From positions 1 to 52,691 of IMG/VR virus record IMGVR_UViG_2872174743_000006: DNA of 52,691 nucleotides; one strand, 5' to 3'. The notes under the pieces were generated by a model that searched no databases, was not told the origin of the DNA, and saw nothing but the letters and a program-made list of their open reading frames with translations. Positions 30,677 to 37,240 of this stretch are shown here, one piece after another. Each line of letters starts with the position of its first letter. Positions within the stretch are counted from its first letter, which is position 1. This stretch comes from a virus. Its lineage: Duplodnaviria; Heunggongvirae; Uroviricota; Caudoviricetes. Both the position numbers and the translations under genes were made by a program.

Positions 30677-30974
30677 TTCACCACCAGCGTATCTGACCGA
30701 TGAAATAACCGGAGGCCATAATCACAAACACCAGCCAGATAAGAATGAACTTCCAGGTGGATAATTTTTCAGCCATCACTCGAATCTCCCGAATCAGTTT
30801 GCTAAAATCAAACACACTTTCTCCTTTGACTTTTCCAGAGTCAGGAAACACAAAACCCCGCTTGCAGCCAACAAACGGGTTTTTTACTTTTATTCACTTA
30901 GTTTTTGTCAGTTCGCAGGATTTCGTGTTATCCGTCCGTGTAAGCAAACCGCATTTTTCAGCAAAATATTCTGC

Positions 30975-31508
30975 TTATCTGTCGATACCCCAGCACGCCA
31001 GCGCGCTCTCCTGGTCACGACGGGATACCTGACCGTAGCAGTTGTTTGAACGAATACGGCAGTCTCTGCCACCGTCCTTAATCCACCAGCGAATCGCCTC
31101 ACACGCTCCCCTGCGATCACCTGCATTAATTCGTTTATAAAACGTCGACGGGAAACACTTACCGGGACCAATGTTGTACGGACAGAATGACGCGATCCCC
31201 GCTTTCTGGGGTTCGCTCAATGGCACTCTGATGTTTTTCTCCACCCATGCCAGCGCCTTATCACGCTCAATGGCGTTAACCCGGTCGCATTTTTCCTTCG
31301 ACAACTTCATGCCCGGAACGACAGGTTTGCCATCCACCAGGATGGCACCGCGGCAGATGGTCCAGATACCCGCGCCATCACGGTATGCCGTGGTGTGGTT
31401 ACCTTCCTTTTCATCCAGAAACTGGTCGAGAATGTCAGGCGCAGGCGCACCAGCGGCAATCAGCGCCAGAACGGCAGCCGACAGGCCGTATTTGATTTTG
31501 GTGTTCAT
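30975..31508 (-). CDS. R: SAR endolysin (lysozyme)
   Basis: 177-aa ORF with N-terminal signal-anchor-release segment MNTKIKYGLSAAVLALIAAGAPAPD and lysozyme-like body. Confidence 0.8.
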   Translation of the reverse strand: MNTKIKYGLSAAVLALIAAGAPAPDILDQFLDEKEGNHTTAYRDGAGIWTICRGAILVDGKPVVPGMKLSKEKCDRVNAIERDKALAWVEKNIRVPLSEPQKAGIASFCPYNIGPGKCFPSTFYKRINAGDRRGACEAIRWWIKDGGRDCRIRSNNCYGQVSRRDQESALACWGIDR

Positions 31509-31711
31509 GGATATATTAAATATTCAGCCGCTGTCCCTGGCCCACTAAATACGCACTTTAAGATAAGTCAGCCCCGGATGAAGCCAGTAAGCCGGCACTT
31601 TTTTAAAGGGTGGAGTATTAAAATCACGAAGAAGAGCCTCCCGCACAATTGCATCCGGTAATGCTGCCAACTTACTGATTTAGTGTATGATGGTGATTTT
31701 AAGGTGCTTGC

Positions 31712-31987
31712 GTGGCTTCCATTTCCATCAGATGTCCTTCCTGCTCCGCTACTGAAGGCGTGGTGCGTAACGGCAAAAGCACTGCCGGACATCAGCGCTA
31801 TCTCTGCTCTCATTGCCGTAAAACATGGCAACTACAGTTCACTTACACCGCCTCTCAGCCCGGTACGCACCAGAAAATCATTGATATGGCCATGAATGGC
31901 GTCGGATGTCGCGCCAGTGCACGCATTATGGGCGTTGGCCTCAACACGGTTTTACGTCACTTAAAAAACTCAGGCCGCAGTCGGTAA
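31712..31987 (+). CDS. insA: IS1 InsA
   Basis: 91-aa [42 protein letters not shown]... Confidence 0.85.
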
Positions 31988-32031
31988 CCTCGCGCATACA
32001 ACCGGGCAGTGATGTGATTGTCTGCGCTGAA

Positions 32032-32409
32032 ATGGACGAACAGTGGGGCTACGTCGGTGCTAAATCACGTCAGCGCTGGCTGTTTTACGCGTATGACAGG
32101 ATACGGAGGACGGTTGTGGCGCACGTCTTCGGTGAACGCACTCTGGCCACACTGGAGCGTCTTCTGAGCCTGCTGTCGGCCTTTGAGGTCGTGGTATGGA
32201 TGACGGATGGCTGGCCGCTGTATGAATCACGCCTGAAGGGAAAGCTGCACGTTATCAGCAAGCGTTACACTCAGCGCATTGAGCGACATAATCTGAATCT
32301 GAGACAACATCTGGCAAGGCTGGGACGGAAGTCACTGTCGTTCTCAAAATCGGTGGAGCTGCATGACAAGGTCATCGGGCATTATCTGAACATAAAACAC
32401 TATCAGTAA
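32032..32409 (+). CDS. insB: IS1 InsB frame
   Basis: [22 protein letters not shown]...; Met chosen inside ORF 31906-32409. Confidence 0.8.
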
Positions 32410-33131
32410 GTTGGAGTCATTACCATTGCATCCTTATCAGCACCACTGGCCAGCGCTTCAATCTCAGCAGCTATCTGCAGATATCCCATGCAACGACCAA
32501 TGCACTTCATCAGCCCCTGCTTTTTATTGTTCTTCAGGTAATCAATGGCAAATTCAATGAGCGCCTCACTATGCTGGTGCGATGGCGGTGTTAATTTCCC
32601 ATTTTCTGAGATGGTTATTTTCCCGCCATCTCCGTATACAACAAAGGATGGCCGGTTACACTCCCATTCCTGATCTTTATCAGGTGCAGACGCAATAAAA
32701 TAACGTTTATTTCCTTCCTCTCCGGCACTTTTAACCGTAATGGAGTACTCAGACTGCAGACAAGACGCCTCTTTTTCTGACCGCAGTGTTGACGGCGGCA
32801 TCTTCAGAGAACAAGTAATTATTCCCGGTAGTTTTCCTCTGTAGGTTATCAACACATCCTGCGCCTCTAAAATGATGGGGCGCTTTTCCTGCAACGGTTC
32901 GTTCCCTTCACATAACCCGGCAGCAACATCCATGAAAAACTGCTTCGCCTGCTTTTTCGCCTCCGCTTCGTAAAACTCCAGCTTGGCACCTTCAGTACGG
33001 TCAAGACTAATCGCCACATATGGCAACAACAGTGACGGATACCCACCAATTTCCAGTGCCACAGTAACAGTAATCTTATCCGGGTAATTATTTATCCCTT
33101 TAACAACCAGTTCGTATTTTTTCTTCATCAC
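32403..33131 (-). pseudogene. unknown lysis-cassette gene (native about 270 aa) with 3' end displaced by IS1
   Basis: Last 7 codons lie inside IS1; joining across the target duplication restores an in-frame tail ...ADKDAIVREALLRDFNTPPFKKVPAYWLHPGLTYLKVRI ending near 31553; no recognisable family. Confidence 0.45.
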
Positions 33132-33132
33132 T

Positions 33133-33348
33133 TTACTCTCCCCGTACAGCCTTACGACGGTCCTCTCTGATTTTGAAATACAGGTTAGTCAGATATGTCA
33201 GCAGCCCAAACAGCAGACTCCCCAGCACGCCTATTGCCGCCCACTGAGACGGGGAAACCCTGTCCAGCAACTGCAGGAACCAGTAGCCCGTTCCCACCGC
33301 TGACGTGGTGTATGACACACCTGTTGTGATTTTTTCCATCTGGTACAT
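33133..33348 (-). CDS. S: class II holin (S21-like pinholin) with dual-start motif
   Basis: Start set at [10 protein letters not shown] (ATG 33346-33348); two TM segments; ends ...[18 protein letters not shown] like phage 21 S. Confidence 0.75.
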
Positions 33349-33498
33349 ACCCCGTCTCCCGTTATCCGGAAGCTGACAACAATAAAAAAAGCCACCAGTT
33401 AAGTACTGATGGCTCTGATAACTCATGCAGGCATCTCAGACGACCCACTGACACTACCGGTGAGTTTAACGATACCTTCCATTTGACTGGCTCACTTT

Positions 33499-35121
33499 TT
33501 ATGATGATGCCGGTGCATTTATCTCCAGCACCAGACTTTCTATCTCAACGCCATACGCTGCATTTTTGGTAATATCCGTCAGCGTCAGTGCATTTAGTCC
33601 CACTGCCAGACTGTCTTTTATGGCCTGGAATGCCGGGCCAGCCACTCCATTCAGTTTCGGAGTAACCGTGGCACTGCCGGCGGTGAACACCAGCTCCAGC
33701 GTCTGCCAGTCGTTACTGTAATTCCCGAACTCGCCCAACTTTGTGTTTCCGGCTTTCTTGTGATGCATCAGATTCCGTTTGCCGTCTGTGGTCTGGGTGA
33801 AGAACGACATCAGGAACGGGTTACCAGTCCCGGTCATCGCCACGACGTCAGGTAACGCTACATCGGTATACAGATAAATTCCCAGACCGAACTGATTGTT
33901 GGTCAGTGCGCCTGACAGTCGAAACTTACAGCTCAGTCTGCCACCCCGTGTCAGCAGGGAGACTGCGTCATCCACCGGGCGCGTCAGGGACCAGGCTTTA
34001 TTGCTCTGCTTGGCGATCTTAAATACACCACCCGACAACTGAATTCCGCCGTCCTTAATGGTCCAGCCCTGCGCAGCAGCCTCTCCGGCTGTCGGCAGCA
34101 GGGAGATTGTGCGAACGGACGTATCTGCAGACGGACCCGATGGCGTGTCGCCGCCGGGCGAGGGTTTGATTTCCGGTGCCTTACCACTGATGAAGGCTGA
34201 GGTGCGCCCGGCTGCGTTCAGAATAGCGGTTGCCATACGATCGGGAATAATGCCACGACGCGCCCATGAGCTGAAATTTGTCGGGCGATTTGATGATACC
34301 CAGTTTTTGTTCGTTCGGGATGCCGAACCGTAATAACCAGACCCGACAATATCAGGATCTTCTGACGGGTTGTTTGTCGGTGTATTAACTCCGCTACCAT
34401 CGGTCATAAAGGGAACAAAATAAATCTGCTGGGATTCTTTACCTTTATATGCACCATATACCACTTCATATTGCGTACCGTGTTCTTGTTTCCACGCGTA
34501 TGTCGTGTCGCCACAAATCCAGGGGACTGTTGCCGGACTTCCACCGTGACACTGCGCCGCCAGCCCGGCAAGGTCAGCACGGAACTGCTGTACCATTGCA
34601 AGAAATGCTGCTGGCTGCTGGGCGTAACTGGCATTCGTCATATCGAATTCCCCCTGCATCCAGCATATCGCCAGCAAAACGTTTTTCGGGTTTTTCTGCA
34701 ATGCTGCCTTCGTGCGGAAAAGCAGATCCTGATATAACGGCTTACCCACTCCCCAGCGAGCCGAATCCTGACTGGCCCCCGTGGACTCGCTGAATGTCCC
34801 CTCCGTGCCCTGGGTGAATGCAGAACCACCACGGCAGCACGGAACCAGAAGAATACCGGCATTCGCCGGAATAAACGGCAACAATTTCTTCGCGATATGT
34901 AATCCCTGCCCCACGCATCCATACTGAGCTGCGCTGGCTTTCGGGTGTGAAAACTTACTCAAATCCTGAACATCATGCAGGCAGTGGTCCGCAGGAATAA
35001 TGTCATTGTAGTTACAGGACGCACCACCCGGCGTGACAGTGCTGCGACGCGCCAGCTGTTTAATACGCGGGTCCGGACGGTCATATGTCTCCGGCAGCGG
35101 AAGCCCTTCACCGTAAGCCAT
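33499..35121 (-). CDS. NanS-p-like sialate 9-O-acetylesterase (SASA domain)
   Basis: 540-aa ORF at the position this gene occupies downstream of the stx locus in Stx-phage backbones, preceded by a DUF1737 ORF. Confidence 0.65.
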   Translation of the reverse strand: MAYGEGLPLPETYDRPDPRIKQLARRSTVTPGGASCNYNDIIPADHCLHDVQDLSKFSHPKASAAQYGCVGQGLHIAKKLLPFIPANAGILLVPCCRGGSAFTQGTEGTFSESTGASQDSARWGVGKPLYQDLLFRTKAALQKNPKNVLLAICWMQGEFDMTNASYAQQPAAFLAMVQQFRADLAGLAAQCHGGSPATVPWICGDTTYAWKQEHGTQYEVVYGAYKGKESQQIYFVPFMTDGSGVNTPTNNPSEDPDIVGSGYYGSASRTNKNWVSSNRPTNFSSWARRGIIPDRMATAILNAAGRTSAFISGKAPEIKPSPGGDTPSGPSADTSVRTISLLPTAGEAAAQGWTIKDGGIQLSGGVFKIAKQSNKAWSLTRPVDDAVSLLTRGGRLSCKFRLSGALTNNQFGLGIYLYTDVALPDVVAMTGTGNPFLMSFFTQTTDGKRNLMHHKKAGNTKLGEFGNYSNDWQTLELVFTAGSATVTPKLNGVAGPAFQAIKDSLAVGLNALTLTDITKNAAYGVEIESLVLEINAPASS

Positions 35122-35154
35122 GGCATTGGACTGCCCGGCCAGGGCAACAACAAA

Positions 35155-35388
35155 TTAATACTCCGGGTTGCTGGTGGTGCTGATAACTGCGCCTTCTCCA
35201 TCCGACGGCTTCACCACCACAGGTGTGGTGACATCACCTTCCGCCGCAATGGCCTGCATCAGGGTATAAGGCGTGATGGCCACCGGACTGCCAAATGGCT
35301 GCCACCCCTCCTTCAGTTTTTGTGTCAGTCGCTCCGCAAGGTCTGACGGCGACGCCGCCCTGACCACGTCATAGTGTTTAAATGCCAT
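35155..35388 (-). CDS. DUF1737 small protein
   Basis: 77-aa ORF MAFKHYDVVRAASPSDLAERLTQKLKEGWQPFGSPV... directly upstream of the esterase. Confidence 0.55.
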   Translation of the reverse strand: MAFKHYDVVRAASPSDLAERLTQKLKEGWQPFGSPVAITPYTLMQAIAAEGDVTTPVVVKPSDGEGAVISTTSNPEY

Positions 35389-35850
35389 AAATCCTCCCGG
35401 CCTGGATAATATTGTGAGTAAAATGAGGAGCGGGCTGAAGTCCGGAAGTTACAGGACAATGGCAGAAGATAGACAACAGCCCGCAATATGAAAAAGGCCG
35501 CGCTATTGCGCAGAGTGATTACTGTCGGATATTATTCACCAGCTGAAATATTACTTCACGTTTTGTTGTTTATTCCTTGCCGCCCGCGTCTCCCAGCGCG
35601 GGCTTTTTTTGTCCATAAGAAAGCCCCTCCGGAGAGGGGCTGGAGAGTGGCGCTATGTGCCATTGCATGGTGCCGGGTGCCTCCCGGTGAGTTCAGTATC
35701 AGCACCTGAACCCGCACAGAAAGGATAAGGGTCGGTGACAAAACACCAGTTGCTGATTGCCCCTCCGCACAGGGGGATTCACCATGCCAGTTTCTTTTAA
35801 CAAACTCCCCGCAAACCAGACAACAGTCAACCGCCTGAATTGTGAGACAT

Positions 35851-35876
35851 TTAAAAAAAAGCCCGCAAAAGCGAGC
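35851..35876 (-). terminator. rho-independent terminator after the tRNA cluster
   Basis: Minus strand GGCTCGC TTTT GCGGGC followed by TTTTTTTT. Confidence 0.45.
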
Positions 35877-35889
35877 CAGGGAAAATAAG

Positions 35890-35966
35890 TGTGGCGCGTT
35901 CTACTGTATTCGAACCAGTGACCGATTGCTTAGAAGGCAATTGCTCTGTCCGGCTGAGCTAACAAC
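35890..35966 (-). tRNA. tRNA-Arg (anticodon UCU), argU-like
   Basis: Cloverleaf readable by hand: TAGCTCAG...GAGC D-arm, anticodon loop CTTCTAA, TTCGAAT T-loop, encoded CCA; one acceptor and one T-stem mismatch. Confidence 0.55.
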
Positions 35967-35979
35967 GCAGGATACAGAT

Positions 35980-36056
35980 AATGAACCGCCTTCGGGGACC
36001 CGAACTCCGCGCAACCAGCTTCGAAGGCTGGCGCTCTTTCCTGATGAGCTAATGGC
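35980..36056 (-). tRNA. tRNA-Arg-like (anticodon UCG), possibly degenerate
   Basis: D-arm and anticodon arm (loop CTTCGAA) canonical, but T-loop reads TTCGGGT, stems have mismatches and the 3' end reads TCA not CCA. Confidence 0.4.
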
Positions 36057-36063
36057 GGTATGT

Positions 36064-36139
36064 GATGGTGGCCCTTGCTGGATTTGAACCAGCGACCTGG
36101 CGATTATGAGTCGCTCGCTCTCACCACTGAGCTAAAGGG
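36064..36139 (-). tRNA. tRNA-Ile2 (anticodon CAU), ileX/ileZ-like
   Basis: GGCCCTTTAGCTCAGTGGTGAGAGCGAGCGACTCATAATCGCCAGGTCGCTGGTTCAAATCCAGCAAGGGCCACCA; closely resembles E. coli tRNA-Ile(CAU) as recalled. Confidence 0.7.
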
Positions 36140-36190
36140 CCGGGAGCAAAATAATAATGGTGCGTAATTAATTCTGCAATCTCATCCGTT

Positions 36191-37240
36191 TCAAACGATT
36201 AAATCCTGAACTTCCCTGACTGTCTGCTCAAAACGTCCGGTCTCCAGTTCAACGCCAATCGCACGACGCCCGAGCGCCAGTGCCGCTTTTACCGTTGAAC
36301 CTGAGCCCATAAAAAAATCTGCAACCTGGTCTCCCGGACGACTGCTCGCGTTGATTATCTGCTGCAACATTTCTGCCGTTTTTTCGCACGGATGTTTCCC
36401 TGGATAGTACTGCACCGGTTTATACGTCCACACATCGGTGTACGGCACCTGCACCGTCACACCGAAATACCTCCGCAAATTTTTATATTCACTCTGCAGC
36501 TCCACATACTGCCGGCTCAGCTCACTGTATGTGCTGACCAGTTGGTAATGGGACTTTTCCAGTTCTCCCCGCTGATGTTTCTCTTCTGCCACCCGGGCAA
36601 ACAGCGACTGTAATTTCAGATAATCGCTTTCGTTCGGTAGCTGCCACTGACTGGCACTGAACCAGTGCGACACCATGTTTTTCTTTCCTGTGGCATCTGC
36701 AATCTGTTTTGCCGTTATCCCCAGGGCAGCTCGCGCATCACGAAAGTAAGCAATCAGCGGGGCCATCACATGCTGTTTCAGTACCCTGCCCTTCGCCTCA
36801 TAGCCATCATCTTTCGGGCGGTACGGCCCCTGATAATGTTCCGCGAACAGAATGCGCTCTGTGGCGGGGAAATACGCCCGCAGGCTTTCCTTGTTGCACC
36901 CGTTCCAGCGTCCGGACGGCTTTGCCCAGATAATATGGTTCAGCACACTGAAGCGTTCACGCATCATGATTTCGATATCAGATGCCAGGCGATGACCACA
37001 GAACAGGTAAAGACTTCCGGCAGGTTTCAGCACCCGCCAGAACTGCGCCAGACACTGGTCCAGCCACTTCAGGTAATCATCGTCGCCCTTCCACTGGTTA
37101 TCCCAGCCCTCAGGCTTCACTTTAAAGTACGGCGGGTCCGTGACTATCAGGTCAACAGAATTTTCGGGTAACGACCGGATAAATTCCAGGCAGTCGGCGT
37201 TGATTAACTCACAACTGGATATTTTTACAGTATTAGCCAT
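36191..37240 (-). CDS. DNA methyltransferase (N6-adenine/N4-cytosine family, DPPY motif), orphan
   Basis: 349-aa ORF with DLIVTDPPY motif and C-terminal SAM-binding FFMGSGST; no restriction endonuclease gene adjacent. Confidence 0.7.
   Translation of the reverse strand: MANTVKISSCELINADCLEFIRSLPENSVDLIVTDPPYFKVKPEGWDNQWKGDDDYLKWLDQCLAQFWRVLKPAGSLYLFCGHRLASDIEIMMRERFSVLNHIIWAKPSGRWNGCNKESLRAYFPATERILFAEHYQGPYRPKDDGYEAKGRVLKQHVMAPLIAYFRDARAALGITAKQIADATGKKNMVSHWFSASQWQLPNESDYLKLQSLFARVAEEKHQRGELEKSHYQLVSTYSELSRQYVELQSEYKNLRRYFGVTVQVPYTDVWTYKPVQYYPGKHPCEKTAEMLQQIINASSRPGDQVADFFMGSGSTVKAALALGRRAIGVELETGRFEQTVREVQDLIV

Follow-up and report, generated by a model that had tools for sequence, protein, structure and literature searches.

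Results

Gene order in the lysis region

The window, that is, the whole stretch of 52,691 nt of viral DNA analysed here, carries its lysis genes on the minus strand in the order holin, YdfR-family gene, lysozyme and Rz with Rz1. The holin gene (33133-33348, minus strand) encodes a class II protein of the P21 or pinholin type, 71 aa long, which matched PF04971 ('Bacteriophage P21 holin S', E 1.4e-32), has a Met1/Met4 dual start and is 95-99% identical to the holins of Stx phages. The endolysin gene (30975-31508, minus strand) is intact and encodes a 177-aa member of the lysozyme family (PF00959, E 1.3e-23), whose hydrophobic, Gly/Ala-rich N-terminus (Kyte-Doolittle 19-residue maximum of 1.74 at residues 9-27) fits a SAR-type enzyme. 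Beyond it lies the Rz spanin gene (30209-30676, minus strand; PF03245, E 3.8e-50), in which Rz1 is embedded (30271-30456; PF06085, E 4.4e-20).

The gene between holin and endolysin had been described in a sequence-only reading as spanning 31553-33131, with about 270 codons. Its presence there was confirmed, on the minus strand and with 268 codons. The start given, 33131, corresponds to an in-frame GTG that is an alternative to the ATG at 33128, the latter lying 4 nt past the TAA stop of the holin gene, whereas the true 3' end was found at 31545, eight bases beyond 31553. The endolysin gene starts 36 nt beyond the restored stop. As had been noted, the GC content of the gene (46.1%) is lower than that of the holin (50.7%), endolysin (55.2%) and Rz (55.6%) genes; the value for the whole window is 52.1%. 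The strand opposite the gene contains short ORFs only, no RNA family was found within it by an Rfam scan, and no sigma-70-like promoter was found 5' of it on the minus strand in a scan of positions 30000-36200.

A terminator-like hairpin with a T-run (33388-33416, minus strand) is located just 5' of the holin start, within the late transcription unit, so that Q-mediated read-through would be needed at this point. Further 5', the nanS-p gene for a SASA esterase (33499-35388, minus strand) is divided into two ORFs, one of 77 aa with DUF1737 (35155-35388) and one of 540 aa with SASA and DUF6645 (33499-35121). Intact homologues of nanS-p form one ORF of 617-658 aa, and the copy in the window is probably a frameshifted pseudogene. 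Between nanS-p and a DNA methyltransferase gene sits a block (35611-36141, minus strand) of three tRNA genes, Met-CAT (an ARAGORN call), Arg-TCG and Arg-TCT, together with a match to the STnc100 sRNA (Rfam RF02076, 143 bits). Stx phages carry stx at the site that matches this block, and in the window this site leaves no space for toxin genes.

The gene is interrupted by IS1

An insertion sequence at 31657-32424 (plus strand), opposite in orientation to the lysis operon, interrupts the gene. All the hallmarks of IS1 are present: a length of 768 bp, terminal inverted repeats of about 23 bp (23 nt in this copy), the insA and insB genes, whose products matched PF03811, PF12759 and PF03400, and a 9-bp target-site duplication. 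The latter reads ATTGCATCC on the plus strand, with copy 1 at 32425-32433 and copy 2 at 31648-31656. A second IS1 at 2063-2830 of the window is just 91% identical to this one; therefore, the two are different IS1 variants.

The 5' part of the gene (32425-33128, minus strand) ends after the second base of codon 235, with codons 1-234 complete, and so covers the DUF1327 N-domain, a variable linker and most of a C-terminal module. The displaced native 3' end (31545-31647, minus strand) resumes with the third base of codon 235 and continues through codons 236-268 to the stop codon TAG (31545-31547). When IS1 and one copy of the repeat were deleted in silico, an uninterrupted ORF of 807 nt was obtained (268 codons plus TAG), with its 3' end at 31545. 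The reconstruction is correct, because the last 42 residues that it restores (...ASGADKDAIVREALLRDFNTPPFKKVPAYWLHPGLTYLKVRI) are identical to those of the intact homologues P0007, P0085 and P0003; the proposal that IS1 had replaced the last 34 codons, with a native end recoverable across the target duplication, is borne out by this match.

As it stands in the window, the gene would specify a truncated product of 234 native residues followed by 7 residues encoded by IS1 (MVMTPTY) and a stop, the 34 native codons being displaced. The displaced end, 31545-31647, contains the invariant residues P248, K250, W256, P259 and Y263. Since IS1 thus removes 34 C-terminal residues with five invariant positions, the window copy is a pseudogene, inactivated by the insertion. 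In addition, IS1 probably lowers the transcription of the endolysin and spanin genes from the late promoter, because it faces against the operon and lies upstream of these genes, as would suit a prophage in decay.

The 241-aa truncated product (ATG start) with IS1 was detected in at least nine NCBI assemblies of chromosome size, including CP026807.1, CP045784.1 and CP026825.1. A search of 5426 complete E. coli genomes for the disrupted allele gave no match, and identical partial products bear the source label Shigella dysenteriae. On these grounds the disrupted allele is most likely fixed in a Shigella-type lineage, and the window is most likely a Shigella-lineage prophage in decay. An exact scan of genome contigs for the IS1 junction and a look-up of the 242-aa product with GTG start gave no match.

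The reconstructed protein belongs to the YdfR family

No family had been recognised for this ORF in the sequence-only reading, and in this respect that reading was mistaken. Residues 1-100 of the reconstructed protein matched Pfam DUF1327 (PF07041) with 145.1 bits, compared to a cut-off of 25 (E 7.6e-43), this being the sole above-threshold Pfam match of the protein. The whole protein matched PHROG 1085, the long form of the family, in two stretches that include the C-terminal module (529 bits, E 5.9e-159), the best of them aligning protein residues 132-268 to positions 160-296 of a profile of 296. PHROG 1085 also matches stand-alone proteins of the C-terminal module and the Salmonella relatives described below. 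P0001, which bears the NCBI name 'YdfR family protein', shows 91% identity across the entire length, and at the DNA level identity reaches 95% with gp05 of Stx2 phage 86 and 98% with the allele of E. coli N32. The same name is used for gp05 of phage 86 and in many RefSeq genomes. Scans of the reconstructed protein with NCBIfam gave no matches, and with PADLOC 0 families at E up to 1.

It is therefore almost certain that the gene represents the long YdfR/DUF1327 form with two modules, in an allele inactivated by IS1, and, jointly with this identity, that lambdoid prophages of E. coli, Shigella and Salmonella carry the family as an accessory late gene located directly behind the P21-type holin gene. 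Both the family and its position are already known and annotated in thousands of genomes, so that the gene's supposed novelty does not survive profile searches and a survey of related cassettes. A match to a known lysis-accessory protein had been named as a result that would speak against a cargo gene; no match to a lysis-protein family was obtained, nor any membrane, signal or lipoprotein feature.

Position and distribution of the family

In the K-12 prophage Qin, the order of genes is essQ (holin), ydfR, rrrQ (lysozyme) and rzpQ, with a gap of 4 nt between the holin gene and ydfR and an overlap of 4 nt between ydfR and the lysozyme gene. In Stx2 phage 86, stx2AB, nanS-p and the holin gene precede the YdfR-family gene (268 aa), which again starts 4 nt past the holin stop and is followed by a small reverse ORF, lysozyme, ant and Rz; the family also occupies the post-holin slot in H-19B, BP-4795 and YYZ-2008. 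E. coli strain 3059 shares the wider context with the window, since there Q is followed by a methyltransferase gene, three tRNAs, nanS-p, holin, YdfR-family gene, lysozyme, Rz and terminase. More distant relatives from Salmonella (25-33% identity, annotated as hypothetical only) lie between Q and the holin or just 5' of holin-lysozyme-Rz clusters, the holin of the latter being of a different family, PF16080.

Among phage records, this holin type was found in 427, the DUF1327 domain in 100 and the C-terminal module in 5, and about three-quarters of the records with the holin lack a DUF1327 ORF. In the ten records that listed coordinates for both features, the DUF1327 ORF always began within a few nt after the holin; they include LC727884, LC645434, NC_011356, PV340549 and PV340573. 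The slot right after the P21-type holin is thus the usual home of the YdfR/DUF1327 family, and an insert between holin and endolysin is a frequent, annotated alternative to the direct order of the two. The earlier statement that cassettes of the phage 21 type run directly from holin to endolysin consequently describes the majority of sequenced phages with this holin but overlooks a common arrangement. In the same way, the description of a cargo gene in an unusual slot is appropriate insofar as the gene is an accessory, mosaic and lower-GC member of a lysis operon, but the slot itself is usual for the family, as seen in K-12 Qin and Stx2 phage 86. Absence from all related phages, which would have told against such a reading, was not observed, as YdfR-family genes are present in the same slot in related phages.

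In bacterial chromosomes, DNA matches were detected in 2936 of the 5426 complete E. coli genomes and were full-length in 553. When 1.84 billion representative proteins were searched exhaustively with an HMM, only 107 clusters at 50% identity were found; the family is therefore small. Its named members all come from Escherichia, Shigella and Salmonella.

Two modules joined by a variable linker

For the structural model and the search of representative proteins, P0001 (91% identical) was used in place of the spliced protein. With a shallow alignment of 14 E. coli sequences AF2 reached a pLDDT of 42, and a usable model was obtained with 81 diverse sequences. In the latter, the N-domain (residues 1-76, about 75 residues) is modelled as three strands and a long helix with pLDDT 75-95. 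It is followed by a linker (about residues 77-150) predicted to be disordered, with pLDDT below 50, which is mosaic among homologues in that a coiled-coil segment may be present or absent. The C-terminal module (residues 155-268, about 115 residues) is modelled as a three-stranded sheet with four helices at pLDDT 65-95. It bears the motifs GRCMGYLQxAAEIE and NPPFKxxPxxWxxPGxxYLKxRI, and in the alignment L198, G211, R212, L217, Q218, A220, P248, K250, W256, P259 and Y263 are invariant.

No second Pfam family was found for the C-terminal module across all 81 members of the alignment, and no structural relative was found for it; no PDB sequence was matched below E 0.2 in profile searches based on two alignments, and no enzymatic or toxin-like fold was recognised. 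A signal peptide, membrane segment or lipobox was likewise not found in the protein, in agreement with the sequence-only reading as regards the signal peptide. The N-terminus is not hydrophobic and the Kyte-Doolittle 19-residue maximum is 1.29, so a role based on a signal peptide or on the membrane was rejected. The protein is predicted to be soluble, with a mass of about 30 kDa.

Four arrangements of the modules were observed: fused, as in the window; the N-domain by itself, which is the case for K-12 YdfR and for proteins 72-76 residues long; the C-terminal module alone, as in P0182 and P0208; and both modules split in reverse order. The last arrangement is that of many O157-type and Stx prophages, where the genes after the holin encode, in turn, the C-terminal module as a protein of 213 aa and DUF1327 as one of 75 aa, with a reverse ORF and lysozyme coming next. 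Examples are the loci L005, L006 and L007 (4001-4897), of which L007 lies a short way 3' of stx genes. When two modules are fused in one lineage but encoded by neighbouring separate genes in another, this is a classic sign that they cooperate. As DUF1327 and the C-terminal module are found both fused and as adjacent separate genes, the pattern suggests that they may work together.

A convergent ORF of about 104 aa, assigned to PHROG 1853 and without Pfam match, was seen directly 3' of YdfR-family genes with the C-terminal module, on the opposite strand (L001:4809-5123, L010:8455-8769, L014:4809-5126, L012:495-812 and L011:436-759, all on the minus strand). It occurs in E. coli, in Salmonella (43% identity) and in metagenome contigs, and it is absent from the window and from the closest intact allele, that of E. 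coli N32.

Evidence for a genuine gene

Between E. coli and Salmonella, where identity falls to 25-33%, ORFs of 250-330 codons have been kept open and invariant residues have been retained. Among four close alleles of 268 codons, dN/dS was about 0.4-0.6 (0.37-0.57), a noisy estimate from a small sample. The K-12 protein has been expressed and purified (PMC13232886). Judged by its conservation, the YdfR-family ORF is thus a genuine gene and not a chance ORF.

In RefSeq, PGAP labels intact 268-codon ORFs as 336-bp pseudogenes, 'incomplete, missing C-terminus' (L002:4002-4808 and L010:7639-8445). The view that the long form is usually broken, as could be taken from these calls, was rejected, since translation shows the ORFs to be uninterrupted. 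The calls look like an annotation artefact, and presumably the naming model covers the N-domain only, which is a guess on our part.

Discussion

Possible function of the family

The gene in the window is one more IS1-inactivated gene of what is most likely a decaying lambdoid prophage in a Shigella-type genome. The family to which it belongs is of wider interest, as numerous lambdoid prophages, both Stx-converting and others, have it within the lysis operon, and about half of the complete E. coli genomes contain matches. Possibly useful for its study are the delimitation of an unnamed C-terminal module, the description of fused and split-permuted arrangements, and a recurrent convergent partner gene.

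As no promoter-like site was found upstream on its own strand and its start lies 4 nt from the holin stop, the YdfR-family protein would be made from the Q-dependent late transcript, alongside the lysis proteins. The only experimental lead on the function of the family comes from K-12 YdfR, which was picked up in a two-hybrid screen and gave two-hybrid signals with RNase E 1-597 (PMC13232886, 2026). In the same work, RNase E 1-598, its catalytic N-terminal half, co-purified with Strep-YdfR, the interaction surface was located within residues 1-72 of YdfR, and the Strep-YdfR eluate contained DNase-resistant nucleic acid, for which the authors state that an RNA-retaining contaminant could not be excluded (PMC13232886). 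Overexpression of ydfR altered very few transcripts and left growth unaffected (PMC13232886).

Over 89 residues, the N-domain of the window protein shares 43% identity with K-12 YdfR (E 1e-20). Because of this relation to a reported RNase E binder, the intact protein may have RNase E or RNA as its target in the late lytic phase and so change how host or late phage transcripts are degraded or processed, and its C-terminal module may serve as the partner or effector part of such a modulator. By analogy with K-12, then, we favour a late protein that modulates RNase E or RNA, or acts as an adaptor for them, standing outside the lysis machinery itself, as a tentative reading that is possible rather than probable. 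Against it, the experiments were done with a 103-aa protein that is 43% identical and lacks the C-terminal module. The complete account, made up of family identity, anatomy, late expression, RNase E mechanism and inactivated copy, has in our estimation somewhat less than an even chance of being right in all its parts.

Linkage to the holin and endolysin genes could equally mean a role in lysis, where the protein would tune the pinholin/SAR-endolysin pathway; it might, for instance, delay the triggering of the holin, make it sharper or set the holin-to-endolysin ratio. A function of this kind would account for the gene staying attached to that of the holin, at a fixed place a few nt past the P21-type holin stop in E. 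coli phages; the stop of ydfR overlaps the start of the endolysin gene in K-12, and even the Salmonella relatives at 25-33% identity still adjoin holin-lysozyme-Rz clusters, including those with a PF16080 holin. However, antiholins, spanins and known holin regulators differ from this protein, which has no membrane segment, signal peptide or lipobox, and lysis evidently does not need it, as some three-quarters of the phage records with the same holin do without the gene. Overexpression of K-12 ydfR caused no growth defect (PMC13232886), and the region behind the late promoter is a general hot-spot of accessory genes such as stx and nanS-p, which makes linkage alone a weak argument. We therefore consider a lysis-timing accessory unlikely. 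A distinctly unlikely explanation, in our view, is a gene of host benefit or conflict, acting in superinfection exclusion, anti-phage defence or counter-defence, in which the C-terminal module and the PHROG 1853 gene would make up a small cassette with expression of its own, separate from the late operon. The low GC content relative to the neighbours, the extreme mosaicism and patchy presence, the restricted taxonomic range (107 clusters at 50% identity out of 1.84 billion proteins searched) and the conservation of the convergent ORF in E. coli, Salmonella and metagenome contigs are what such a gene could show, but PADLOC gave no match, the gene has no promoter-like site of its own, the convergent partner is missing from both the window and the closest intact allele, N32, and an enzymatic or toxin-like fold was not recognised.

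That the ORF is recombination filler without function, lying between holin and endolysin modules and open by chance, can hardly be credited. High mosaicism, a dN/dS only moderately below 1 among close alleles and the pseudogene calls by PGAP would be in line with filler. Nevertheless, the called 'pseudogenes' are intact ORFs, reading frames of 250-330 codons have stayed open with invariant residues down to 25-33% identity, both domains fold confidently in AF2 when a diverse alignment is given, and the K-12 protein can be expressed and purified and binds a partner (PMC13232886). A more specific proposal for the C-terminal module is that of a new domain acting as a unit with DUF1327 and often with the PHROG 1853 gene, the whole constituting a hidden accessory cassette in enterobacterial lysis operons that would reprogram RNase E-dependent RNA decay or set the timing of lysis in Stx-type phages; this is speculative, and we would not expect it to hold.

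Comparison with known systems

The closest counterpart of the window gene is gp05 of Stx2 phage 86 (YP_794052.1, 268 aa), an allele also present in E. coli O104:H4, N32 and others, which has the same length, architecture and slot at 95-98% DNA identity. The copies of phage 86, O104:H4 and N32 are intact, whereas that of the window is not. Phage 86 also differs from the window in having the convergent 104-aa gp06 (PHROG 1853) between gp05 and lysozyme. The split arrangement of O157-type and Stx prophages contains the same two modules in the same slot, but as separate genes and in the order opposite to that of the window; one of its products, P0061 (213 aa), is about 86% identical to the C-terminal half of the window protein.

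YdfR of K-12 (b1555, P76160), from the cryptic prophage Qin, has a homologous N-domain and the identical slot (essQ-ydfR-rrrQ, 4-nt gap). With 103 residues it consists of the N-domain only, whereas the window protein adds a linker of 75 residues and a C-terminal module of 115 residues without Pfam family, and only the copy in the window is broken by IS1.

Phage proteins that act on RNase E include Srd of T4, gp0.7 of T7 and Dip of phiKZ, and T4 Srd binds the N-terminal catalytic half of the enzyme. No relation in sequence or fold was found between these three and the window protein, so that any likeness would be one of action only. If the result obtained with K-12 YdfR carries over to the long form, the family would provide one more RNase E-binding phage protein, directed, like T4 Srd, at the N-terminal catalytic half.
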